Source: Oscillospiraceae bacterium
Lineage (GTDB): Bacteria > Bacillota > Clostridia > Oscillospirales > Ruminococcaceae
Reading direction: 5' to 3'
Assembly (NCBI GenBank): GCA_017473015.1
Contig: JAFUNP010000006.1
Location: forward strand, 1 to 57,719
DNA length: 57,719 bases
The position numbers and the translations under genes were made by a program. The notes below the pieces were generated by a model that was not told the DNA's origin, did not search any database, and was given only the letters and a program-made list of their open reading frames with translations. Numbering within the stretch: position 1 is the first letter of the stretch; each line of letters opens with the position of its first letter. Below are positions 4,641 to 49,348 of the stretch, piece after piece.

Positions 4641-5192
4641 TTATATATAATAAATGTCGGTGGACCAGTTGGCAGGGTTGTTGGCAATATATTCCGCCTT
4701 TTCCATATAATCCGCCTCATTGCGGATAATATGGTCGTAGTATGAGCGCTGCCATACATCAATTTCTGGCATCAGATAATGAATTTTCTTTGATGAATTC
4801 ATTTTCAGATATCCAACTGCCTTTGATACAACCGAGCGTTTACCGCGTAGGGGCGATTCACGAATCGCCCGCTCTTCTTTTATAGTGAAAAGCAGATGTA
4901 TATGATTTGGCATTATTACATATTCGTTAATCTCTATATTAAATTTTTCAGGCAGTTCACATATTATTTCGTCAACTATACGCCCACAGGAAGACAATCT
5001 GTTTTCGGGCGGTTCGTGAACCGCCCCTACGCGAATCCGGGAAATTTTCCGGTATTCAGTTTTATTTTTATCCGCATTCTTCCAGAATAAATTTTTCCTG
5101 TCTTTGGTACATATTGTGATAAAGTACATACCTGCTGTGCTGTAATCCCAATCTTTCAAACGGATACTTTTTCTTTGCGGCAGATTATCCAT
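4641..5192 (-). CDS. REP-associated tyrosine transposase (RAYT, IS200-like Y1 HuH transposase)
   Basis: 183 aa with YFITICT N-terminus, HuH motif IMPNHIHLL and catalytic WQRSYYDHIIRNE (compare E. coli YafM FWEHAIRN). Lies between parA (stop 5196) and parB. Carries two in-frame REP hairpins at 4843-4872 and 5007-5033. Confidence 0.8.
   Translation of the reverse strand: MDNLPQRKSIRLKDWDYSTAGMYFITICTKDRKNLFWKNADKNKTEYRKISRIRVGAVHEPPENRLSSCGRIVDEIICELPEKFNIEINEYVIMPNHIHLLFTIKEERAIRESPLRGKRSVVSKAVGYLKMNSSKKIHYLMPEIDVWQRSYYDHIIRNEADYMEKAEYIANNPANWSTDIYYI
4843..4872. repeat. REP hairpin inside the RAYT coding sequence (ccgcGTAGGGGCGATTCACGAATCGCCCgc), identical to the intergenic copy at 24126-24152
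   Basis: GTAG head plus palindrome GGGCGATTC/GAATCGCCC. Encodes AIRESPLRG in frame. Confidence 0.8.
5007..5033. repeat. REP hairpin inside the RAYT coding sequence (GGGCGGTTCGTGAACCGCCCCTACGCG), in opposite orientation to 4843-4872
   Basis: Palindrome GGGCGGTTC/GAACCGCCC plus the GTAG head on the gene strand. Encodes RVGAVHEPPE in frame. Confidence 0.8.
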
Positions 5193-5195
5193 TGG

Positions 5196-5960
5196 CTACC
5201 TTCCGTTCTGTCCCAACACTTCCTCGGCCAGTTCCATATAGCTTTTTGCACCTTTGGATGAGGCATCGTAAAAATTGATAGGTTCGCCGTAGCTTGGGGC
5301 TTCGGACAGGCGCACATTTCTTGGAATTGTGGTTTTGTACACCTTATTTGGGAAATACTTCTTAACCTCTGCCACCACCTGTAAGGTAAGGTTAAGACGG
5401 GAATCATACATTGTCAGCAAAACACCTTCAATATCAATGTATTTATTATAGTGTTGCTTAACCAGACGGATGGTATTCATCAGTTCAGAAAGACCTTCCA
5501 GAGCAAAGAATTCGCACTGGATAGGCACCAGCACTGTGTCAGCCGCTGACAGCGCATTGATTGTCAGCAGGTCAAGGGCCGGCGGACAGTCTATAAATAT
5601 AAAATCATAGTTGTCGCTGACTCTGTTCAGCGCTGTGCGCAAACGGGCGTGACGGTTATCAAGAGCCACCAGCTCAACTGCAGCCCCTGCCAGCTTTGTA
5701 GATGACGGCAATACATCAACACCGAATTTTGTCTTTACCAAAGCGTCCCTTACATCATCACCGTCCAAAATAACTGTATAGGTAGAGTGTTCCAGACCTC
5801 TTTTCATTATACCGTAGCCGGATGTAGTGTTTCCCTGGGGGTCCAGGTCTACCAGCAATACCTTTTTACCTTTTGCGGCTATACACGCGGCCAGATTTAC
5901 CGCTGTAGTTGTTTTGCCCACGCCGCCTTTCTGGTTTGCCACCGCTATAATTTTTGCCAT
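5196..5960 (-). CDS. parA: chromosome partitioning ATPase ParA/Soj
   Basis: Deviant Walker A KGGVGKTT; 254 aa, typical of Soj. Confidence 0.9.
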   Translation of the reverse strand: MAKIIAVANQKGGVGKTTTAVNLAACIAAKGKKVLLVDLDPQGNTTSGYGIMKRGLEHSTYTVILDGDDVRDALVKTKFGVDVLPSSTKLAGAAVELVALDNRHARLRTALNRVSDNYDFIFIDCPPALDLLTINALSAADTVLVPIQCEFFALEGLSELMNTIRLVKQHYNKYIDIEGVLLTMYDSRLNLTLQVVAEVKKYFPNKVYKTTIPRNVRLSEAPSYGEPINFYDASSKGAKSYMELAEEVLGQNGR

Positions 5961-6048
5961 AGTTACCCCACCTTTTGCTGTAATAAATAATTTATCGTCA
6001 ATATTTTTATTTTATCATATAACATATAGTTTTTAAAGAGTAATTTTT

Positions 6049-6064
6049 TGTTCCATGTGGAACA
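6049..6064. promoter_or_regulatory. parS-like site TGTTCCATGTGGAACA
   Basis: 16-bp near-palindrome with 3 mismatches to the Firmicutes parS consensus TGTTTCACGTGAAACA. Sits in the parA/noc-like divergent intergenic region. Confidence 0.5.
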
Positions 6065-6123
6065 TATATACCATTTCAAAAACCTCAATAATAAAATTAA
6101 ACGTAGTTTTTAATATACTTTTC

Positions 6124-6153
6124 GGGACGTCGAGGACGCCGTCCCCTACGCGG
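6124..6153. repeat. REP hairpin GGGACGTCGAGGACGCCGTCCCCTACGCG (same unit as 25881-25908 and RAYT2 10858-10886)
   Basis: GTAGGGG head with a GC-rich palindrome. The surrounding 6120-6420 region is a stack of further hairpins (6161-6192, 6273-6310, 6313-6350). Confidence 0.75.
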
Positions 6154-6568
6154 GGTGGGTATCGGGAGGAGTGCAACGCACCTCCCGATTTTTTATAAGC
6201 GCGTGACGTTGAGTTGCCGATTTGAAAATGCGCAGCATTTTTTGGAGGCAATAGTGACGCGCACACCTTCTACGCGTTAGGGGACCGGGGCGAATCGCAA
6301 CGCCCCGGGGCTTTGGTACTTTCACCCTGAAAGTACGTAAAACTTCTTTTGAAGTTTTATCTATATAATCGAGGCTGTTAGCGATAAACGGTAACCCTAA
6401 CTTTCCATCACATAATCCACCAATTTCCACCACCCTTCCCCTTTCTTCCCTATATTTTTACAAAATAAACCGAAAATAATGTAATTTTCTCTGTTTTTCT
6501 GCGATATATAAAGGTATATTTTTTATTTTATATATGTTATTGTAAAATCAAAGAAAGGAGTTTTGCCA

Positions 6569-7369
6569 ATGTTCGCCACAGCATTCAGACCACGCCGGGA
6601 AGTAAACACAGTCATGCAGATACCCTTGTCACAGATTGTCCCCTGTCCTTATCAGCCGCGAAAGCTTATAAACCGTCAGGCATTGGAAGACCTGGCAGAA
6701 AATATAAAGGAAAACGGCATACTTCAGCCGCTGACTGCCACCCGACTGTCTGACGGCCGCTACCAGCTGATTGCTGGTCACCGCAGGCTTTTGGCCGCCA
6801 CCAAGGCCGGACTGGAAACCGTGCCTGTCATCCTTCTGGATAAAACCGAAGAAGAAGTGGCGGTGTTGGCGGTAATAGAAAACCTGCAGCGTGAGGATTT
6901 AAACTTTTTTGAACAGGCTATGGCTATACAGTCACTGATGACCAACCTTAATCTTACCCAGGCCGCCGTAGGCCAGAAGCTTTCCCTTTCCCAGCCGGCA
7001 GTAGCCAACAAACTGAAACTGCTGCAGTTTTCCAAAGAACAGCAGATGAAGATACTGGCTTTCAATCTGTCTGAACGCCACGCACGCGCTATTTCCCGTC
7101 TGCCTGCCGAAAAGCAGGACAAAGCCCTGGACTACATAATCCGCAACAATCTGAATGTTTCCGCCACCGACAGATATGTGAACAGCCTGCTGGCCCCAAA
7201 AGAAAAGCACAAGCAGACTGTAAAAGTAAATATAAAGGATATACGCATATTTTCAAACACAATCGCAAAGGCAGTAAAGATAATGCAGACTGCCGGAATA
7301 AACGCAGGCTGTCAGCAGACCGAAGACGACACCGCTATCCGCTGGCAGATAACAGTACCCAAAATATAG
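6569..7369 (+). CDS. noc: ParB-family paralog, Noc-like (nucleoid occlusion protein-like)
   Basis: ParB box region VPCPYQPRK, LIAGHRR, LQREDL and a C-terminal ERHARA...LNVSATDRYV resembling the B. subtilis Noc C-terminus. ATG at 6569 is preferred over the TTG at 6563 (RBS aaggag 6555-6560). Confidence 0.7.
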   Translation: MFATAFRPRREVNTVMQIPLSQIVPCPYQPRKLINRQALEDLAENIKENGILQPLTATRLSDGRYQLIAGHRRLLAATKAGLETVPVILLDKTEEEVAVLAVIENLQREDLNFFEQAMAIQSLMTNLNLTQAAVGQKLSLSQPAVANKLKLLQFSKEQQMKILAFNLSERHARAISRLPAEKQDKALDYIIRNNLNVSATDRYVNSLLAPKEKHKQTVKVNIKDIRIFSNTIAKAVKIMQTAGINAGCQQTEDDTAIRWQITVPKI

Positions 7370-7370
7370 T

Positions 7371-7396
7371 TAATAAACACCCCGGTGTTTTTAATA
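7371..7396 (+). terminator. intrinsic terminator after the noc-like gene
   Basis: Hairpin aaacaccccggtgttt followed by a T-run. A second hairpin, aaggcacctt/aaggtgcctt, lies at 7429-7460. Confidence 0.5.
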
Positions 7397-7473
7397 TACA
7401 GTTTTTCACCATTCCTATTAACCGCACAAAAGGCACCTTTTACAAGGTGCCTTTTGTGTTTCCGTATCAACCT

Positions 7474-7489
7474 TGTTCCACGTGGAACA
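7474..7489. promoter_or_regulatory. parS site TGTTCCACGTGGAACA (perfect 16-bp palindrome)
   Basis: One mismatch (symmetrised) from the consensus TGTTNCACGTGAAACA. Located downstream of the noc-like gene, near rsmG. Confidence 0.6.
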
Positions 7490-7599
7490 AATAAAATCTA
7501 TAAGTCAGATACTCACATCCGCTCTATTCATAAATAGACAAATATAATTAAACTCCCCATATTTATCAATACAGGGAGTTCTCTATTACATTTCTATTA

Positions 7600-8298
7600 T
7601 CACAGCGGTGCTTTATTTATCTTTCCGCCGTTGCGTGGGTATGGTTTTGGTGTTTCTTTTATTTTCTTTGAAACAATCAGACAGCGTTTGCTTTCATCAG
7701 GCAATGTGAAAGTTTCCATATTTTCATATTTGCCGCCCAGCTTTTCAATGGCTTTCAGCGCAGGTGTCAGCTCCTTTTCGCCGTCGCCTTTCATGGCGAT
7801 GAAATGGCCGCCCACCTTTGCCAGCGGGATGCAGTATTCAGACAACACTCTCATATCTGCCACAGCACGGGCAGTTACCACATCAAACTGTTCTCTCCAC
7901 TGTTTTCTGGCTGCTTCCTCCGCTCTTTCCTTTACTACATGGCCATCAAGACCAAGAGTATCCAGAGCATACTGCAGAAATGTGCAGCGTTTGCCTGTTG
8001 GCTCAATAAGAGTCAGGTCAATTTCCGGTTTGTAAATTTTGGTTACAATACCCGGAAAGCCTGCGCCTGTGCCAACATCAGCCACTTTGCCTTTTACCAG
8101 AGAATGCTTTGCAAACAGCAGGCTGTCCAGAAAATGCTTGTTTTCAATGCCCAGTGGGTCAGTAATAGCTGTCAGATTAACCTTTTCGTTGTAATCCACC
8201 AGTATTTCGGCATACTTGTCCAGCTGGTCCAGCTGTTTTTCTGTCAGTTCTATATCATATTCTTTCAGAGTCTGTACAAAACGAATTCTGTCAATCAT
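7600..8298 (-). CDS. rsmG: 16S rRNA (guanine527-N7)-methyltransferase RsmG (GidB)
   Basis: 232 aa with SAM motif DVGTGAGFPG; adjacent to mnmG. Confidence 0.9.
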   Translation of the reverse strand: MIDRIRFVQTLKEYDIELTEKQLDQLDKYAEILVDYNEKVNLTAITDPLGIENKHFLDSLLFAKHSLVKGKVADVGTGAGFPGIVTKIYKPEIDLTLIEPTGKRCTFLQYALDTLGLDGHVVKERAEEAARKQWREQFDVVTARAVADMRVLSEYCIPLAKVGGHFIAMKGDGEKELTPALKAIEKLGGKYENMETFTLPDESKRCLIVSKKIKETPKPYPRNGGKINKAPL

Positions 8299-8315
8299 AT
8301 TTACTCCTAAATTAA

Positions 8316-10187
8316 TTATTTTTTCATTTCTCGCATTTTAAGCTCCAGCAGCAGTGAAGAAATATCACTTGGGCTTACGCCGGAAATTCTGGATGCCTGA
8401 CCCACATTTGCGGGGCGTATTTTAATCAGCTTTTCTCTGGCTTCCATGCGCAGACCATTCATTGTGCTGTAGTCAATATCTTCCGGAATCAGTGTATTTT
8501 CCAGCTTTTTGGTATGTTCAATCTGTGCCTGCTGGCGTTTTACATAGCCGTCATACTTGATGTCCACTTCCACCTTGCTGCCGATAAACGGTGTCACTTC
8601 TTCTCCTTCACCTATTACTTTTACCAGTTCTTCATAGGTAATCTGTGGGCGTTTCAGGAATTCGTTGGCTCTTACACCTGTGGACAGTGGCGGCAGTCCT
8701 TTGCTTTCCAGCAGCTCTTTCACCTGACCAGGCTTGATTGTGATTGAAGAAATTCTTTCGATTTCTCTGTTTTTCACTTCCAGCACATGGTTGTAATAAT
8801 CCCATCTTTCGTCGTCTACCAGACCTATTTCCCTGCCCATCGGTGTCAGTCTTTCGTCAGCATTGTCCTGGCGGAGATACAGTCTGTACTCACTGCGGCT
8901 GGTCATCATTCTGTATGGGTCCAGAACGCCTTTTGTAATCAGGTCGTCAATCAGTGTGCCGATATAAGAGGACTGGCGTGTGAGAGTGAACTCATCTTTT
9001 CCCTGCAGCTTTCTTGCAGCGTTGATACCTGCTATCAGACCCTGTGCAGCAGCTTCTTCATAACCGGATGTACCGTTGAACTGGCCTGCACCGTAAAGAT
9101 GAGGATATTTTTTGAATTCCAGAGTAGCTTTCAGTTCCAGAGGGTCCACACAGTCATATTCAATGGCGTATGCAGGTCTCATAACCTCCAGATTTTCCAG
9201 ACCTTTGATTGTCTTGTAAAATGCCACCTGTACTTCCTCCGGAAGTGATGAGGACAATCCCTGCAGATACATTTCATCAGTATCAGCACCGCAAGGCTCA
9301 ACGAAGAACTGGTGTCTTGGCTTGTCAGAAAATCTCATTACTTTGTCTTCCAGAGACGGACAGTATCTTGGACCGATACCTTCGATTTTGCCGCCGTACA
9401 GTGGAGAGCGGTGAATATTGTCCATAATTACCTTGTGTGTATCCAGGTTTGTGTACTGAATATGGCAAGGCAGGATGTTTTTGATTTCGTGTCTTGTCAT
9501 AAATGACATAGGCACTGTTTTTTCATCACCTTCCTGCACATCCATTACAGAAAAGTCGATACTACGTTTGTTTACACGGGCCGGTGTGCCTGTTTTAAAG
9601 CGGCGCAGTTCAATGCCTGCAGCTTTCAGGCTGTCAGACAGCTTCATTGCGCTGTGGTGGCCGTCCGGACCGGAATAGTAGGCCGCATCACCCACATAAA
9701 TTTTACCTGTCAGATATGTACCTGTGGCGATAATTACCGCCTTGCAGTCGTACTGTGTGCCCAGCTGGGTTACAACAGCAACAGGCTCGTTGTTTTCATT
9801 GAACTTGATTTCGCAGATTTCTGCCTGTTTCAGGTCCAGGTTTGGCTCTTTTTCCACCAGATTTTTCATATATGAATGATATTTCATACGGTCTGTCTGC
9901 TGGCGCAGAGAGTGAACAGCAGGACCTTTGCCCAGGTTCAGCATTCTCATCTGCAGTGCACAGGCGTCGGCAGCTATGGCCATCACGCCGCCCAGAGCGT
10001 CAATTTCCCTTACCAGATGGCCTTTGGCTGTACCGCCGATGGCAGGGTTACAGGGCAGGTTTCCCACCCCGTCCAGAGTCAGTGTGAACAGACCGGTTCT
10101 GCAGCCCAGTCTTGCGCTGGCCACAGCCGCTTCTATTCCGGCATGACCCGCACCGATAACAATTACATCATAATTTCCTAATACCAT
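8316..10187 (-). CDS. mnmG: tRNA uridine 5-carboxymethylaminomethyl modification enzyme MnmG (GidA)
   Basis: 623 aa with FAD motif [11 protein letters not shown] and a conserved GidA core. Confidence 0.95.
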
Positions 10188-10491
10188 AAATAGCTCCTTT
10201 TAGGTTTAAATGTCTGTTAACTTTGCAATCCCTTTCACCGATTGTAAGCAACTAAAATATATATTCCACCGGTTTCCCGGATGGTTGACTGAATTAAAAT
10301 CTGTTTTTGATATAAATACAGATTTGCTCTTATATTTTCAACATTATTTTTAACAAATGTTGAATTTCTTATATTTTTCACAGTTTTTAAAGAAAAACTG
10401 CAATAAAACCCGGATTTTAAAGATTTTTCGAAAGATCAACAATATTACATTTTGTAATATTTATTTTAATTATATTACTATAAGTATTTTT

Positions 10492-11010
10492 TTATAATAT
10501 TTTACTGTAATACTCATCATCACGCCATTTTGCAGGGTTAGTCAGAATATACTCCACCTTTTCCATATAATCCGTCTCATTGCGGATAATGTGGTCGTAA
10601 TATGAGCGTTGCCATAAATCAATTCCACATTTCTTATTTGTAAACCTCTTGAAGGTTGAAATATATTGTGAAATCAAAGAATTTTCACGCGTAGGGGACG
10701 GCCTCCCGGACGTCCCGCCAGCATTTTTTATTTCAATTATCATGTGTATATGATTGGGCATGATTACATAATGTCCTACATTTATGTTTTCATAAATATC
10801 ATTCATTATTTTTACTTGTTCATCAATAACACGCCCATATTCCGTCAGTTCAATAAACGGGGCGTCGAGGACGCCGCCCCCTACGCGTATTTTGCTTAAA
10901 ATATGCTTTTTACCAACAGTGCATATAGTTATAAAATACATCCCGTCTGAATTATAATCCCAATCTTTCAGGCGCATTTTCTTTCTCTTAGCCAAAGTTT
11001 TCTTTTCCAT
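10492..11010 (-). CDS. REP-associated tyrosine transposase (RAYT) paralog
   Basis: 172 aa with MYFITICT, HuH VIMPNHIHMI and WQRSYYDHIIRNE. Inserted between mnmE and mnmG. Carries in-frame REP hairpins at 10688-10719 and 10858-10886. Confidence 0.8.
   Translation of the reverse strand: MEKKTLAKRKKMRLKDWDYNSDGMYFITICTVGKKHILSKIRVGGGVLDAPFIELTEYGRVIDEQVKIMNDIYENINVGHYVIMPNHIHMIIEIKNAGGTSGRPSPTRENSLISQYISTFKRFTNKKCGIDLWQRSYYDHIIRNETDYMEKVEYILTNPAKWRDDEYYSKIL
10688..10719. repeat. REP hairpin inside RAYT2 (cgcGTAGGGGACGGCCTCCCGGACGTCCCgcc), identical to the intergenic copy at 14874-14903
   Basis: Encodes AGGTSGRPSPTRE in frame; GTAG head plus palindrome. Confidence 0.8.
10858..10886. repeat. REP hairpin inside RAYT2 (GGGGCGTCGAGGACGCCGCCCCCTACGCG), related to 6124-6153 and 25881-25908
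   Basis: Encodes RVGGGVLDAP in frame. Orientation is opposite to the 10688 copy. Confidence 0.8.
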
Positions 11011-14282: not shown

Positions 14283-14338
14283 TTCAATTCACCTTCAAAT
14301 TGATTGCACAGCAATCCGGAGGGGTTCACCTTCCCCTC

Positions 14339-14677
14339 TCACTGTTCCTTTTTCATATCATTATCTTTAAAAGCCGCACTGAACACTTCTTCCCTTGCAG
14401 TGTTTATTTCTGTATAAATATCCTCCACATATTCACATCCTGTAATCACAACAGGCATCTCGCTTTTGTAGGCGTTATTTATACTGGCACCGCCGTTGGT
14501 AATGTTCATCACACGACAGCTGTACACAAATCCCACCGGTTTATCCCGGCTTATACCGTATTTTACCTCGGCCAGCTTTACCGCTTTTTCCCTTGTGTCA
14601 GCCAAAAGTGCCTTTATCCTTTTGTAGTTGACAGCACCTTTCAAACCTATATCTCTGGAGTAAAAGTAATAAATCAT
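14339..14677 (-). CDS. hypothetical protein
   Basis: 112-aa ORF with good coding statistics but no recognisable motif. Confidence 0.4.
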   Translation of the reverse strand: MIYYFYSRDIGLKGAVNYKRIKALLADTREKAVKLAEVKYGISRDKPVGFVYSCRVMNITNGGASINNAYKSEMPVVITGCEYVEDIYTEINTAREEVFSAAFKDNDMKKEQ

Positions 14678-14827
14678 ATTTTACATTCCTTTATATTTTA
14701 TATAAATATAACTATAAGTAAATTAAATAATTCATTTTATCTTAACTATATGTTATATTATACCAGAAAATTATTTACGGTATATTAAATATATATTAAC
14801 AATATGTTATTTCCTGCAATTATTTTA

Positions 14828-14903
14828 CCGCGTAGGGGACGGGTTTCCCGTCCCGTGGCAGTATCTTAAAACACGCGTAGGGGACGGCCTCCCGGACGTC
14901 CCG
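14828..14903. repeat. REP doublet (two GTAGGGGACG-headed hairpins) plus a REP-like terminator hairpin at 14925-14950
   Basis: ccgcGTAGGGGACGGGtttCCCGTCCC and cgcGTAGGGGACGGCCTCCCGGACGTCCC in tandem, downstream of gyrA. Confidence 0.8.
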
Positions 14904-14954: not shown

Positions 14955-17441
14955 TTATTCTTCCACAGCTTCTTCTGTCACAGTTTCTGCTGTTTCTTCA
15001 GCCGTTTCATCAGCTTCGGCGTCTTCGCGCATTGTCACTGCAAATGTCACAGCCTTGTCCTCTGCATCCAGACGCATTACCTTTACACCGCTGGCGTAAC
15101 GGGACTGCACTGCAATATCAGATGCATGCATACGAATAATTATACCACTCATGGAAATCAGGATAATATCGTCATCATCGTTTACAATCCTTACACCGGC
15201 CACATAACCTGCTTTTTCCACGTCATAGTTTCTTACGCCTTTACCGCCTCTGGTCTGCAGACGGTATTCGCTTACATCTGTTCTTCTGCCCTTGCCGTCT
15301 TCAGTGATTGTCAAGAGCTTAGCGCCTTCCTTGGCCACGCCCATACCAACAACAATATCGCCTTCAGCCAGTTCAATGGCCTTTACACCACGGGCGCTTC
15401 TGCCCACCAGACGAACATCATTTTCATGGAATTTTATTGCCTGGCCGCCGCGTGTAGCTACAATCAGTTCATCGTTGTCGCCGGTCACTCTTGTCCATGC
15501 CAGGTCGTCACCTTCGTCCAGAGTGATGGCAATCAGACCGCTCTTGCGCACATTTTTGTATTCTTCCACAGGGGTACGCTTGATGATACCTTTCTGTGTA
15601 ACCATAACCAGATTGCCTTCAAAACCTTCCTCTGTCGGAATAACATTTGTAATTTTTTCGTCAGGCTGCAGCTGCAGCAGGTTAACAATATTGATACCTC
15701 TTGACTGTCTTGAGCCTTCCGGAATTTCATAACCCTTCAGTCTGTACACACGGCCTTTGTCTGTGGCGAACATAATATAGTTATGTGTCATAGCCATAAA
15801 CAGCTCTTTCACATAATCCTCATCACGGCGTGTCATACCGCTGATACCACGGCCGCCTCGGCGCTGTGCCTGATATGTGTTTTTAGGCTGGCGTTTGATG
15901 TAACCGAAGTTTGTAAATGTAAATACACATTCTTCGTTAGGAATCAGGTCTTCGATGTCCACTTCGCCGTTTACATGGGCGATTTCTGTTCTTCTGGCAT
16001 CACCGTATTTTGCTTTGATTTCTCTGATATCTGTTTTCACCTGTTCCAGCACCATTGTGTGGTCAGACAGGAATTTGTTCAGATATTCAATTTTTGCTTC
16101 CAGTTCAGCCAGTTCGTTTACTATTTTTTCCACTTCCAGACCCTGCAGTCTTCTCAGCTGCATGTTCAGGATAGCTGTGGCCTGTATATCAGACAGACCG
16201 AATCTTTCCATCAGTCTTTCTTTTGCATTGTCATAGCTTTCGCGGATAATTCTGATTACTTCATCTATGTTGTCACAGGCGATTTTCAGCCCCAGCAGCA
16301 GATGCTGTCTTTCCATTGCTTTTCTCAGGTCAAATCTGGCTCTTCTTTCCAGAACATCACACTGATGGTCAATGTACTTCTGCAGCATTGTTTTCAGATC
16401 CATAACCTTTGGTACGCCGCCGTCCAGCGCCAGCATAATTGCGCCGAAGGTATCCTGCAGTTCAGTGAGAGAATACAGGTGATTGAGCACTATCTGTGGG
16501 TTTGCTTCCCTTTTCAGCTCAATTACAATTCTCATACCATCGCGGTCAGATTCATCATTCAGGTCGCTGATGCCTTCCAGGCGTTTTTCTTTTACCAGGT
16601 CAGCAATTCTTTCAATCAGTCTTGCTTTGTTAACCATGTAAGGAATTTCTGTCACGATAATCTGGTATCTGCCGTTTGCCTTTTCTTCAATCACAGCACG
16701 GCCACGGAGAGTGATTTTGCCACGGCCTGTGGCATATGCGGAACGGATGCCGCTTCTGCCCATGATAATGCCGCCTGTAGGAAAGTCCGGGCCTGGAATC
16801 AGCTCCATCAGTTCAGAAAATTCTGCATCCGGGTGGTCCACCAGATATTCGATACCGTCACAGATTTCGCCCAGATTGTGAGGCGGAATGTTTGTGGCCA
16901 TACCTACAGCAATACCGGAAGAACCGTTTATCAGCAGGTTTGGAATTTTACTTGGCAGAACAGCAGGCTCCTGACGGGAATCGTCAAAGTTGTTTACAAA
17001 ATCAACTGTTTCCTTGTCGATGTCGCGCAGCATTTCGTCTGTGATTTTTTCCATGCGTGCTTCTGTATAACGGTAAGCAGCAGGAGGGTCGCCGTCCACA
17101 GAACCAAAGTTACCCTGACCGTCAATCAGAGGGTATCTCAGTGAAAAATCCTGTGCCAGACGAACCATGGCATCGTAAACAGATGCGTCACCGTGCGGGT
17201 GGAATTTACCCAGCACTTCACCAACTGTCTGTGCGGATTTCTGATAATCGTGGCTTGCGTCCAGATTATTTTCATACATTGCGTACAGGATACGGCGGTG
17301 AACAGGCTTCAGACCGTCACGCACATCCGGCAGCGCACGGGAAACGATAACAGACATGGAATAATCCAGAAAGCTGCCTTTCATTTCCTTTTCAATATCT
17401 TTAATTATATATCTTGTGTTATCTATCATTTTTATCTCCAA
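14955..17441 (-). CDS. gyrA: DNA gyrase subunit A
   Basis: 828 aa; QRDR region [19 protein letters not shown], active-site Tyr context and C-terminal beta-pinwheel repeats with an acidic tail. Confidence 0.95.
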
Positions 17442-23974: not shown

Positions 23975-24200
23975 TTCTGTCATCCTGAGGAAGACTTTGT
24001 CTGACGAACCCACTACGCTCGCAGGACAGGCTCGCGTTTTTGCCTACGGCAAAACCATTCAGTCGCTACGCTTATCTCCTCTTGCTCTTTCTGCACAAAC
24101 CTGAAAATATGCTGTGTCGGCTTCCGGGCGATTCGTGAATCGCCCCTACGCGTAGAACCTGCGTATACAAGGCTCCCATTCAGGCGACTGAGGGGTTATA
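23975..24200. repeat. Composite repeat block between oriC and the dnaA stop (TGTCATCCTGAG unit, a module shared with 2020-2095 and 26760-26820, REP 24126-24152, gactgaggg module)
   Basis: cactacgctcgcaggacaggctcg...caaaaccattcagtcgctacgc matches 2020-2095 and is the reverse complement of 26768-26820. The REP is identical to the RAYT1 internal copy. Confidence 0.75.
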
Positions 24201-24205
24201 TTCAG

Positions 24206-25510
24206 TTACAGTGTTTTTACATTTTTTATAATATCTTCCACTGTGTCGCGGAAGAAGGAGTTTGTCTTTATTTTCTTGTCCACCTGTTTCAGTGTGTATA
24301 CAACTGTGGAATGGTCGCGTCCGCCGAACTCTTTGCCTATTTCTTCCATGGTCAGACCGCACACTTCCTTCACCACATGCATGGCCATCTGTCTGGCTTC
24401 GCTGATTTCCCGCTTTCTCTTCTGGCTTCTCACATCAGCAGCTGTCACATTGTATACCTTGCATACATCGGTGATTATTTTTTCGATTGTCACCGGTGTG
24501 CTCATCTGTTCGTTGAGAATATCCTTGATTGCGGCCTGGGCATTTGCCATAATCGGCGGTTTGCCCTCCAGCTTCTGCATTGCATCCAGCTTTTTAACCA
24601 CGCCTTCCAGCTGACGGATGTTGGTTTTCACCTTTGAAGCAATAAATTCAATAACTTCAAATTTGATGTCCATACCCAGCAGGTCAGATTTTCTTTTGAT
24701 GATGGCGCATCTTGTTTCAAAATCCGGTGGCCGTATGTCGGCTATCAGACCCCATTCAAACCTGTTTCTCAGCCTGTCTTCCAGACTTTTGATTTCTTTC
24801 GGCGGTCTGTCAGATACCAGTACTATCTGCTTGCCGGCATTGTGCAGTGCGTTGAAAGTGTGGAAAAATTCTTCCTGTGTACTTTCCCTGCCTGCTATAA
24901 ACTGAATATCGTCCACCAGCAGCACATCTGCCTGACGGTATTTGTTTTTAAATTCACTGGTTTTGTTGTCTTTGATTGCTGCGATGATTTCGTTGGTGAA
25001 ATCCTCACCGGACACATACACAATGTTTGCCCCCGGATTATTTTTCAGAATTTCCGCCCTGATAGCATTCAGCAGATGGGTTTTGCCCAGACCGCTGTCC
25101 CCATGTATAAACAACGGGTTGTAGGAATTGGACGGGTTCTGTGCTACAGCCAGCGCTGCCGCATGGGCAAATTTATTGGAAGAACCTACTATGAAAGTAT
25201 CAAAAGTAAAAGCGTATTCGCCGCTGTTTACAGGTTTTACTTCTTCGGCTGCTTCTTCTTCGGTTGGTTTTATGGCTATGTTCAGCAGAACTGTGAAACC
25301 CAGCACATCCTCAAAAGCCTCTGTCAATAACCCTTTGAATCTGTTGTTTACAGTGTCCTGCAGCCATTCGTTGGCCACATACAGTGTCACAGTGTCACCG
25401 TCCATGCTGCCGGCCTCCATCGGGTCCAAAAACAGCTTGTAAGACGCCTGCACCATGCGCTGTGCACAGTAGTCTTTTACAGCTAAAAATACATCATTGA
25501 AAGATTCCAT
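24206..25510 (-). CDS. dnaA: chromosomal replication initiator DnaA
   Basis: 434 aa with AAA+ Walker A GDSGLGKTHLL and a domain IV DNA-binding signature (ARQMAM...FGGRDHSTV). Confidence 0.95.
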   Translation of the reverse strand: MESFNDVFLAVKDYCAQRMVQASYKLFLDPMEAGSMDGDTVTLYVANEWLQDTVNNRFKGLLTEAFEDVLGFTVLLNIAIKPTEEEAAEEVKPVNSGEYAFTFDTFIVGSSNKFAHAAALAVAQNPSNSYNPLFIHGDSGLGKTHLLNAIRAEILKNNPGANIVYVSGEDFTNEIIAAIKDNKTSEFKNKYRQADVLLVDDIQFIAGRESTQEEFFHTFNALHNAGKQIVLVSDRPPKEIKSLEDRLRNRFEWGLIADIRPPDFETRCAIIKRKSDLLGMDIKFEVIEFIASKVKTNIRQLEGVVKKLDAMQKLEGKPPIMANAQAAIKDILNEQMSTPVTIEKIITDVCKVYNVTAADVRSQKRKREISEARQMAMHVVKEVCGLTMEEIGKEFGGRDHSTVVYTLKQVDKKIKTNSFFRDTVEDIIKNVKTL

Positions 25511-25693: not shown

Positions 25694-26240
25694 GTAGGGT
25701 GCGATGCCCACATCGCACCGTTGCCGGTCTGCCGTGGAAGTGAGCGTAGCGAAACGACCATGTGCAGATGCCGAGTTTCGTTATCGAGGCAAGGCAATGC
25801 GATGCCCACATCCCACCACTTATAAAAAGATTTCCTTTGTTTTGTTGTAATTGCGGCCGGTTGATGTCGCTCATAGTATACCGTAGGGGACGGCGTCCTC
25901 GACGTCCCAAGGGCGGATACTGTCCGCCCCTACGCGAGGCAGCGCACAAATCAGAGTATTGTCATCCTGAGCAAGCGTAGCGCGTCGACGCCTGCCGCAG
26001 CAGGTGTGCAGAGCCGCAACCGAACGAAAGTGAGGCTCTTGGCGGCGAGCAAGGATCTTTGCCGCTACAAGCGGCAACGGGATGTCCAGAGGCCATCCCC
26101 TACGCGAAATGCAAAAGCCTCCCATGTGCAATGGCCCAGGCCAGCTTCTCTTGCCCTTTGGGCAATTCACCGTCGGGGTGGTGGCCGAGTGTAACGCGGC
26201 CGGAGGGGTTGTTTATTCAAATCTCCGCGGGACGGGGAGC
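25694..26240. repeat. Large REP/BIME-like cluster upstream of dnaA (bracketed GCGATGCCCACATCGCACC hairpins, two GTAGGGG REPs at 25881-25936, TGTCATCCTGAG unit 25955-26075, REP 26078-26106)
   Basis: At least six GC-rich hairpins with GTAG(G) heads. The hairpin GGGACGGCGTCCTCGACGTCCC equals 6124-6153. Confidence 0.8.
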
Positions 26241-34374: not shown

Positions 34375-34505
34375 CCGTAGGGGACGATGCCCACATCGTC
34401 CCGTTGGCGCTTTGCCGCGGAAGGCGATTTATTCGCCGACCGTGCGCAAATGCGAGCTGTGGCGAAATGCGAGCAAGCCAATACGATGCCCACATCGTCC
34501 CACAG
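34375..34505. repeat. BIME-like element: two direct REP hairpins GGGACGATGCCCACATCGTCCC (34375-34402, 34483-34501) bracketing an 80-bp core
   Basis: The core is the reverse complement of 1945-2030 and the left hairpin equals 1855-1880. Confidence 0.8.
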
Positions 34506-48807: not shown

Positions 48808-49348
48808 TATTAGAAAAAACAAGAAGCACCCAATCAGGGTGCTTTTTGTTTTATGCTGTCATTTCAATCCCTGTCCCGACCTCGCAGACTTTTTTCCGTG
48901 ATTGATACTTTCTTCCGTGGTATAACATACATGAAGACAAAAATTGCCAGCGCTGGTGGCTGGGCCCTCAGATGGGAAATGCGTAATTCTGGCATTGCCA
49001 CCGCGGTGCACACGGGCGTACCCGTTGTGTATACCGGCAGCTGCTGTCTTTGCAATGGGCAATCGCTGCGGCGACGGGGTTCAACTCCCCACAGATACTT
49101 ATAATAGCACTGTAAGCTCAATTGGATGATTTTTTTTAAACTTAACCGTTCCGCCCGGACTCCCTGTACGGCTCTGCCGTCGGGGTATCTGAGGCAAATA
49201 CAGCACCTGCCCTGTCCGCCTGGCAGATACCGGTGCCCTTCCCCTCAGGCCAGCTTTTGTCCGCCTGCCGGGAATGCTCCTTACACCGGCGGCCGCAGCT
49301 GCAGTATGAACGGTTATCCGACTTTTCTTACCACGGAGGTATTTATAT

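Follow-up and report, generated by a model that had tools for sequence, protein, structure and literature searches.

Repetitive extragenic palindromes (REPs), as their name implies, are normally found between genes, but in two genes for REP-associated tyrosine transposases (RAYTs, also called TnpAREP) on a contig of an Oscillospiraceae bacterium, and in a large family of their relatives, such palindromes lie within the coding sequence itself, in frame, as an inverted pair at two fixed sites either side of the codons for the HuH motif. The two hairpins of any one gene evolve in concert and diverge in class along with the protein core, and it is the DNA hairpin, rather than the peptide that it encodes, that is under constraint. 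In-frame REPs of this kind were briefly reported in 2018; what is described here is a regular, two-site and co-evolving form, seemingly standing in for the flanking REPs of the canonical arrangement, the REPtron. The contig (NCBI GenBank assembly GCA_017473015.1, contig JAFUNP010000006.1, positions 1 to 57,719) belongs to a metagenome-assembled genome (MAG) and spans the surroundings of dnaA; it is referred to in what follows as the window.

A hairpin pair at two fixed sites

Each of the two RAYT genes of the window (RAYT1 and its paralog RAYT2, 52% identical; coordinates are collected in Table 1) contains one hairpin in sense orientation, 5' of the HuH codons and here called S1, and another in antisense orientation just 3' of them, here called S2. 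In RAYT1, S1 encodes R-VGAVHEPP, in the loop joining strand beta1 to the first long helix, while S2 encodes RAIRESPLR, immediately past the HuH strand; relative to the E. coli TnpAREP each site adds some 9-11 residues. The layout is thus as the original prediction for this DNA had it, namely two GTAGGGG palindromes per gene, in frame and in opposite orientation on either side of the HuH motif, of different classes in the two paralogs and each adding about 10 residues. Its further claim, that the internal palindromes are exact copies of intergenic REPs, holds for one hairpin in each gene: S2 of RAYT1 (4844-4871) is the exact reverse complement of intergenic 24125-24152 over 28 nt, and S2 of RAYT2 (10686-10717) is identical to intergenic 14872-14903 over 32 nt (the predicted positions were 1-2 nt off, and the first of these identities had not been recognised as a reverse-complement match). 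The other hairpin of each gene is instead a doubly compensated variant, S1 of RAYT1 differing by two changes (A-T to G-C) from the class at 24126-24149, and S1 of RAYT2 likewise by two changes from the intergenic class at 6124-6149 and 25883-25908, with the stem still paired in both cases.

In the window as a whole GTAGGGG occurs 15 times against 3.7 expected, a fourfold enrichment, and none of 100 shuffles reached that count. There are 14 GTAGGG-headed hairpins, ten of them intergenic and four intragenic, and all four of the latter are in the RAYT genes; none was found in the other 42 long open reading frames (ORFs) of the window. A 5' CGC extension is present on all four internal and on six of the ten intergenic copies, and is seen at just two of 66 homologous S1 sites; a prefix so common here and so rare elsewhere suggests that internal and intergenic REPs of this genome have exchanged sequence recently. 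More generally, a 3-nt 5' prefix is common to internal and external copies in 19 of 77 cases against 5.3 expected, a moderate enrichment, although some of these may be pseudogene fragments. Rfam contains no RNA family that matches the region.

A protein search gave 2,675 relatives, and the arrangement was surveyed at the DNA level in two independent samples (though in the phylogenetic sense they are non-independent). The first, for which the RAYT1 family served as seed, took 80 loci from species-representative genomes and yielded 86 genes with the HuH motif; the second took 80 metagenome loci, seeded with REP-less relatives so as to reach a different part of the family, and yielded 83 genes. 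Over the two samples 102 of the 169 homologous genes have both hairpins at the same two sites, with their GTAG heads pointing outward. Taken separately, 64 genes of the first sample have both hairpins, 13 have S2 only, 2 have S1 only and 7 have neither, the corresponding figures for the second sample being 38, 24, 3 and 18; many of the S2-only genes of the second sample carry double-foot REPs. Orientation is invariable at either site. S1 is always sense, and is read in the frame GTA-GGG in 66 of 66 cases in the first sample and 39 of 41 in the second, while S2, antisense throughout, has two reading frames in the first sample (54 and 23 genes) and three in the second (giving ...PT, ...PL[QR] or, rarely, ...PY). 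The median span from S1 to S2 is 193 nt, and the two, which are inverted, are predicted to pair. As to the extent of the wider family, at E <= 1e-3 it comprises 20,234 clusters at 50% identity, and both peptide signatures are present in 80 of the 144 full-length proteins among the 150 best-scoring representatives. The hosts are mostly Clostridia/Oscillospiraceae, and they include isolates (e.g. Gemmiger formicilis DFI.6.10, locus L056).

Comparison of S1 with S2 of the same gene gives 2.5 differences per 20 nt in the first sample and 2.8 in the second, as against 11.9 and 11.7, respectively, for S1 of one gene and S2 of another. Where the stem pairs of S1 and S2 differ, the difference is compensated in 25 cases, both stems staying perfect, and not compensated in 5; in the GTAG head none of 244 positions differs between the two copies, whereas the 3 nt upstream of the head vary freely (101 of 183). 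The two hairpins of a gene therefore evolve in concert, each keeping its own perfect stem, and the compensation within each hairpin together with the invariant GTAG implies that both copies are maintained as genuine REPs.

The class of the hairpins also follows the protein. With the loops masked in the calculation of core identity, the proportion of gene pairs having hairpins of the same class is 1% below 40% core identity, 30% at 50-60%, 63% at 60-70% and 86-100% above 70% (Spearman rho -0.28, with none of 999 permutations as extreme). Hairpin class is a heritable trait of a RAYT lineage, and it co-diverges with the protein core. At 38% of loci a copy of the gene's own class is found outside the gene within 10 kb, the figure for foreign classes being 3%.

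These results bear on how the hairpins came to be where they are. It had been suggested that the segments might be lineage-specific indels, but in the alignment of orthologs the closest homologs keep them, with palindromic codons, and since the same two sites are occupied family-wide, with a class that co-diverges with the protein core, they are not lineage-specific insertions. Nor are ancestral sequence and REP the alternatives that they had been taken to be, as the segments here are both ancestral and palindromic REPs. Of the recurrent insertion or gene conversion originally proposed, exchange between internal and intergenic copies is plausible, given the CGC extension that they have in common, while recent insertion is unsupported.

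It would be easy to mistake these segments for conserved protein motifs. In the closest homologs (50-60% identity) the palindrome-encoded residues are among the most conserved, with the consensus sequences VGAIHESP and RAIRESPL[RQ], and the covariation seen in these segments (I with S, L with A, V with P) is just as expected from conservation of a stem in the DNA. Across the family, dozens of REP classes occupy the same two sites, encoding peptides as different as VGAIHESP, VGDGVLDVP, VGADAHIGP and VGANCVRP. The REP segments have a GC content of 70%, the remainder of these genes one of 40%, and codon use in the segments is strongly skewed (GGG 64% vs 18%, TCG 71% vs 15%, CTA 39% vs 5%), although this skew is partly conditioned by the way in which the segments were picked. 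Since hypervariability of the peptides goes together with reading in up to three frames at S2 and with predicted disorder, the constraint lies on the DNA hairpin, the encoded peptides being passengers; conservation at the level of the peptide was considered, and is ruled out on the same three grounds. For annotation this carries a warning: “conserved” motifs such as VGAIHESP and RAIRESPLQ are DNA repeats, not protein motifs.

The enzymes and their flanking REPs

Judged by their sequences, both ORFs are intact REP-associated tyrosine transposases of the subclass 2.4 / group 4 type. With the Pfam profile PF01797 for the IS200-like Y1 transposase domain (cut-off 23) RAYT1 scores 39.3 bits and RAYT2 17.2 bits, i.e. 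above and below the cut-off respectively, while with the NCBIfam profile REP_Tyr_transpos (NF047646, cut-off 80) the scores are 79.2 and 68.3 bits; the two inserted loops appear to depress the profile scores. The HuH motif, the Tyr and the Asn four residues past the Tyr are invariant in the alignments A1 and A2, made with 28 and 46 of the closest relatives (50-60% identical). The residues listed as binding the GTAG foot in E. coli TnpAREP (legend to Fig. S11 of PMC6006769), namely W94, Q95, W99, E100, H101 and R104, align with W147, Q148, Y152, D153, H154 and R157 of RAYT1, so that four of these positions (W, Q, H and R) are identical and two (W to Y and E to D) are conservatively replaced. 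The signature NH[IFV]H / WQ / YIxNNP of TnpAREP subclass 2.4, or RAYT group 4 (Bertels et al. 2017) is present in RAYT1 (NHIH, WQ, YIANNP) and, with one deviation, in RAYT2 (NHIH, WQ, YILTNP). The closest PDB sequence match of RAYT1 is 4ER8, the structure of TnpAREP bound to REP (E 2e-9), and a Foldseek search using an AlphaFold2 model of RAYT1 (mean pLDDT 80, with most of the core above 90) returned 4er8_A at the top (E 3e-7, probability 1.00). In this model the two REP-encoded loops (residues 43-61 and 109-116) have pLDDT below 50. RAYT1 also has, just upstream of S1 (residues ~37-50, window 5043-5084), a Lys/Asn-rich insertion of 14 residues, WKNADKNKTEYRKI, that is found in no aligned homolog.

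In the canonical REPtron (Nunvar et al. 2010; Ton-Hoang et al. 2012; Corneloup et al. 2021) the RAYT gene lies between two inverted REPs. The window genes have no such pair: there is no REP within 950 bp of either, the nearest external copies lying 957 and 2760 bp from RAYT1 and 3822 and 4337 bp from RAYT2. This is the usual situation for genes that have both internal hairpins, of which 1 of 63 in the first sample and 3 of 30 in the second are flanked by REPs on both sides within 300 bp, whereas for genes that have neither internal hairpin the figures are 4 of 6 and 4 of 8 (Fisher p 8e-5 and 0.025, respectively; pooled, 4/93 vs 8/14). The inverse association was thus replicated in the second sample. 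For those REP-less genes of the first sample whose flanks were read directly (L040, L055, L078 and L032) the flanking REPs are nearly always sense upstream and antisense downstream of the gene, which is the same heads-out geometry as in the internal pair. The internal pair seems, then, to replace the REPs that normally flank such genes.

The closest precedent is that of Quentin et al. 2018 (BMC Genomics 19:475, PMC6006769), who reported in-frame REP insertions in tnpAREP genes of subclass 2.4; the original prediction had taken the arrangement to be undescribed, and in this it was mistaken. The present genes resemble those of subclass 2.4 in the type of REP (GTAG, then GGG...CCC with a stem of 8-9 bp and a loop of 3-5 nt, e.g. 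GTAGGGGCAATTCATGAATTGCCC from Chlorobium in its Table S1), in having a REP in frame between HuH and Tyr, in the beta3/alphaC loop, where S2 of both genes is located, and in the double-foot REPs, known from that subclass, that occur here also in S2-only relatives. They differ from what is described there in having a second regular site before the HuH motif, in that the hairpins at the two sites are of one class and make up a heads-out pair, in the usual absence of flanking REPs, and in their hosts, mostly Clostridia/Oscillospiraceae. The text of the publication (the image of figure S10 aside) has nothing on an N-terminal site, a paired layout, concerted evolution, co-divergence or an inverse relation to flanking REPs, and no further description was found in the literature beyond it, subscription journals being largely outside the search.

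The genes can also be compared with other known systems. With the REPtron these genes have in common the enzyme fold, the catalytic and GTAG-binding residues, a heads-out inverted cognate pair and the co-evolution of enzyme and REP class, and the REP-less homologs L040, L055, L063 and L078 show exactly the REPtron layout; where the genes differ is that the pair lies inside the ORF, ~190 nt apart, is translated, and brackets just the segment from helix A to the HuH strand. A REPIN (Bertels and Rainey) consists of two inverted REPs that are close together, form one long hairpin and replicate as a unit; S1 and S2 are inverted and predicted to pair, but are ~190 nt apart. In the IS200/IS605 elements (IS608, ISDra2) a Y1 HuH enzyme recognises folded single-stranded hairpins near its own gene, and the fold match to RAYT1 has a probability of 1.00, but those hairpins lie outside the gene, on one strand, and define the mobile unit, whereas here they are inverted and intragenic. 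The Rickettsia palindromic elements (RPE) are in-frame insertions in unrelated protein genes. In such cases, as also for the REPs found in frame in many unrelated bacterial genes (Di Nocera et al. 2013, PMC3733652), short palindromes are tolerated in frame and add 8-10 residues, presumably as loops, just as in the present genes; however, insertions of that sort are sporadic, species-specific and distributed over many gene families, while here the host gene is that of the cognate enzyme, and sites and orientation are fixed across a large family.

Genomic setting and variants of the pair

Table 1 Features of the window: RAYT genes, their motifs and internal hairpins, and intergenic REPs.
Feature	Position	Strand	Remarks
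RAYT1 gene	4641-5192	minus	ORF between soj and parB; 183 aa, Y1/HuH TnpAREP-type protein
RAYT1 S1	5007-5033	minus (gene sense)	CGC + GTAGGGGCGGTTCACGAACCGCCC at 5007-5030; 8-bp stem, 4-nt loop
RAYT1 HuH motif H97-I-H99	4896-4904	minus	invariant in alignments A1 and A2
RAYT1 S2	4844-4870	plus (antisense to gene)	CGC + GTAGGGGCGATTCACGAATCGCCC at 4847-4870
RAYT1 catalytic Tyr168 (YIANNP)	4689-4691	minus	N172 aligns with Mg ligand N119 of E. coli TnpAREP
RAYT2 gene	10492-11010	minus	ORF between mnmE and mnmG; 172 aa
RAYT2 S1	10859-10887	minus (gene sense)	CGC + GTAGGGGGCGGCGTCCTCGACGCCCC at 10859-10884; encodes R-VGGGVLDAP
RAYT2 HuH motif H87-I-H89	10744-10752	minus	
RAYT2 S2	10688-10716	plus (antisense to gene)	CGC + GTAGGGGACGGCCTCCCGGACGTCCC at 10691-10716; encodes GGTSGRPSPTR
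RAYT2 catalytic Tyr154 (YILTNP)	10549-10551	minus	
Intergenic REP	24126-24149	minus	class of RAYT1 S2
Intergenic REP	14877-14902	plus	class of RAYT2 S2
Intergenic REP	6124-6149	minus	GACGGCGTCCTCGACGTC class; nearest relative of RAYT2 S1
Intergenic REP	25694-25719	plus	upstream of dnaA
Intergenic REP	25883-25908	plus	upstream of dnaA
Intergenic REP	25911-25933	minus	upstream of dnaA
Intergenic REP	26079-26103	minus	upstream of dnaA
Intergenic REP	1856-1881	minus	class GACGATGCCCACATCGTC; no RAYT of this class in window
Intergenic REP	34377-34402	plus	class GACGATGCCCACATCGTC, second copy

The neighbouring genes of the window are housekeeping genes (parB, soj, a second parB-like gene, rsmG, mnmG, mnmE, dnaN and dnaA), among which the two RAYT paralogs lie 5.3 kb apart. 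Clustering of RAYT paralogs of differing REP classes within a few kb is seen not only here (4641-11010) but also at loci L005, L022, L026, L052, L056 and L072. At L022 two neighbouring RAYT genes 303 bp apart have identical protein sequences, a hint of local duplication, and L026 and L052 have three RAYT-related ORFs each, some of them truncated or with a stop. In other lineages RAYT genes may lie near mnmE (L073, 9998-11862) or within 3-4 kb of the parB-soj-noc-rsmG-mnmG cluster (L048 and L054). Siting close to the origin was considered as a possible rule and rejected, since only 4 of 80 loci (these three and the dnaA-linked L039) are near parAB, mnmG, mnmE or dnaA, which may be chance.

As regards the intergenic REPs, the four in the gap upstream of dnaA (24206-25510, minus) belong to four classes, and two of them, at 25883-25908 and 25911-25933, make up a tail-to-tail pair of two classes just 2 nt apart; this region (25694-26103) may be that of the replication origin. 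A direct tandem of REPs of different classes, 22 nt apart (14832-14854 and 14877-14902), lies between the convergent genes 14300-14788 (+) and 14955-17441 (-). Three classes have no RAYT in the window, namely GACGATGCCCACATCGTC (1856-1881 and 34377-34402) and GACGGGTTTCCCGTC and GCGGACAGTATCCGC (14832-14854 and 25911-25933), from which one would predict that further RAYT paralogs exist on other contigs of the genome. Two of the three match the internal classes of the RAYT genes of L043 and L075 exactly or within one loop base, while the third has just part of its stem in common with those of L020 and L112, its loop and stem length being different. Elsewhere in the window ARAGORN called an 82-nt tRNA-Cys (49018-49099) that is absent from the Rfam results at the gathering threshold.

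Departures from the simple pair also occur. Extra or duplicated in-frame REP units are present at or beside the two sites in P0017, P0064, L045 (992-1594), L039 (10226-10756) and L072; one example is an insert of ~45 residues containing a further VGAVHERP...RALREAPLQ pair, and at L072 a GPSRTPV unit is tripled. No inverted copies of the S1-S2 module were found. At L026 a RAYT ORF of 106 aa (L026_2, 8045-8365) lacks, through a deletion that keeps the frame, everything between the S1 head and a point just beyond S2, so that HuH is gone, and its stop codon TAG is supplied by the GTAG head of a flanking REP. A remnant at L052 (~8760-9063) begins at an intact S1 head and has also lost S2, and another at L039 (~9960-10183) has an intact S1 at its 5' end, after which it jumps to the HuH region. 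As variants of the module, the deletion and the two remnants are anecdotal.

Possible explanations and their meaning

Known TnpAREP enzymes bind the folded single-stranded REP strand-specifically, by way of its GTAG and features of the stem-loop, and cut and rejoin it (PMC8266576), binding of the GTAG foot and stem being known for the enzymes of E. coli, Stenotrophomonas and Marinomonas. The account of the internal pair that we favour, and consider on balance to be probably correct, is that these genes are in effect REPtrons whose ends lie inside the ORF, the pair providing the enzyme with the cis sites that flanking REPs would otherwise supply; this function of the hairpins is inferred. Since the pair is inverted and heads-out, as is the flanking pair of a REPtron, each DNA strand presents exactly one 5'-GTAG-hairpin. 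Recognition in cis, for which a REPtron has its flanking REPs, would thereby fall to the internal pair: when the gene became single-stranded during replication or transcription the hairpins would fold, and the enzyme would bind to them through the GTAG foot and stem. An enzyme and a seed copy of its REP class would in this way be physically inseparable through duplication and transfer, while strand transfer or gene conversion would keep internal and intergenic copies alike, and the internal hairpins may additionally damp expression. That the enzyme would actually bind, and possibly cut and rejoin, at the hairpins of its own gene, making the gene a self-contained seed for its REP class, and that excision or loss of the HuH-coding S1-S2 module could act as a self-limiting switch, is a more tentative proposal, and one that we would regard as rather unlikely.

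There are clear caveats to reading the pair as cis sites. Since hairpins were called only where the stem was perfect over at least 5-6 bp, the compensation and codon statistics depend in part on that requirement; many of the loci are short MAG or metagenome contigs, making the counts of external copies lower bounds; and the 24 S2-only genes of the second sample show that the pair is not obligatory. The genes without internal REPs are few (14) and phylogenetically non-independent, for which reason the inverse association must be called suggestive rather than proven. The hairpins could also stay intact without any cis function, if the genomic pool repeatedly overwrites the internal copies. Finally, the modelling by Quentin et al. 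placed the beta3/alphaC insertion at the periphery, and they took it to be possibly neutral (PMC6006769).

According to the main rival, REPs landed in two permissive surface loops of an ancestral RAYT and have since been inherited as neutral passengers, staying alike and hairpin-shaped only through overwriting by conversion (from the genomic pool or between the inverted copies) and having no role in cis. We regard this as rather unlikely, though by no means negligible. Both loops are predicted to be disordered, and the REP-less homologs show that they can be short; in-frame REPs occur in many unrelated genes of other bacteria (PMC3733652); Quentin et al. propose little impact on activity (PMC6006769); and the genome-specific CGC prefix found on internal and intergenic copies alike points to exchange. 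On the other hand, palindromes are prone to deletion, and their in-frame loss would be tolerable, yet both sites persist with fixed orientation at core identities of 35-60%. Elements of ~25 nt are, moreover, poor substrates for homologous conversion. Nor would one expect, for passengers, that none of the 42 other long ORFs of the window should hold a REP, or that the inverse relation to flanking REPs should be seen in both samples. An effect at the RNA level, by which an S1:S2 duplex in the mRNA around the HuH-coding segment would throttle translation of a potentially harmful nuclease, or trigger RNase cleavage of its message, seems to us improbable. It is true that the minimum-energy folds of both S1-S2 intervals pair S1 with S2 over ~27 bp, at -77.2 kcal/mol (z = -6.8) and -83.8 kcal/mol (z = -7.7), and that none of 200 shuffles folded as well; however, any inverted pair of REPs automatically gives low energies, S2 is present alone in 37 genes (many of them with double-foot REPs), and compensation within each hairpin (25 cases against 5) keeps the local stems while breaking the pairing of S1 with S2. 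Given this compensation it is the local hairpins that are favoured, and the long-range duplex was rejected as a selected feature, being more likely a by-product.

It might also be supposed that the Gly/Pro-rich loops do something in the enzyme itself, such as determining specificity for the hairpin class, and that the REPs of the genome derive from the gene rather than the reverse. S2 immediately precedes the helix by which the REP stem is contacted in 4ER8 (legend to Fig. S7 of PMC6006769), and the loop sequence necessarily shifts with REP class; but the peptides are alike merely where the GTAG head and CCC foot impose it (VG...P; ...PT or PL[QR]), S2 hairpins at one protein position are read in two to three frames, pLDDT is below 50 in both loops and it is the palindrome that dictates codon use, all of which makes such a function very improbable. 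As for the whole arrangement being an artefact of assembly or sequencing, or a matter of chance palindromes, the window is admittedly a MAG contig, but the reading frames are intact and GTAGGGG is fourfold enriched, while the occurrence of the same architecture in 102 genes, from independent assemblies and from isolates (Gemmiger formicilis, L056), already refutes an artefact, so that this can for practical purposes be set aside.

The questions about domesticated transposases on which these findings bear are what ties a RAYT lineage to its own REP class and what the REPs beside RAYT genes are for. For a large clade, cognate hairpins embedded in the gene offer a simple physical explanation of the linkage between RAYT and REP. 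Bertels et al. 2017 found group 4 RAYTs to be weakly associated with abundant flanking 16-mers; surveys based on flanking sequence would miss intragenic REPs, which may contribute to the weak REP association of this group. The arrangement also provides an experimental handle, in that the hairpins can be recoded synonymously without changing the protein and the protein altered without changing the hairpins. If the enzyme does act on the hairpins of its own gene, this would be a case of a protein-coding gene having two surface loops dictated by, and co-evolving with, the very DNA structure that its protein recognises.

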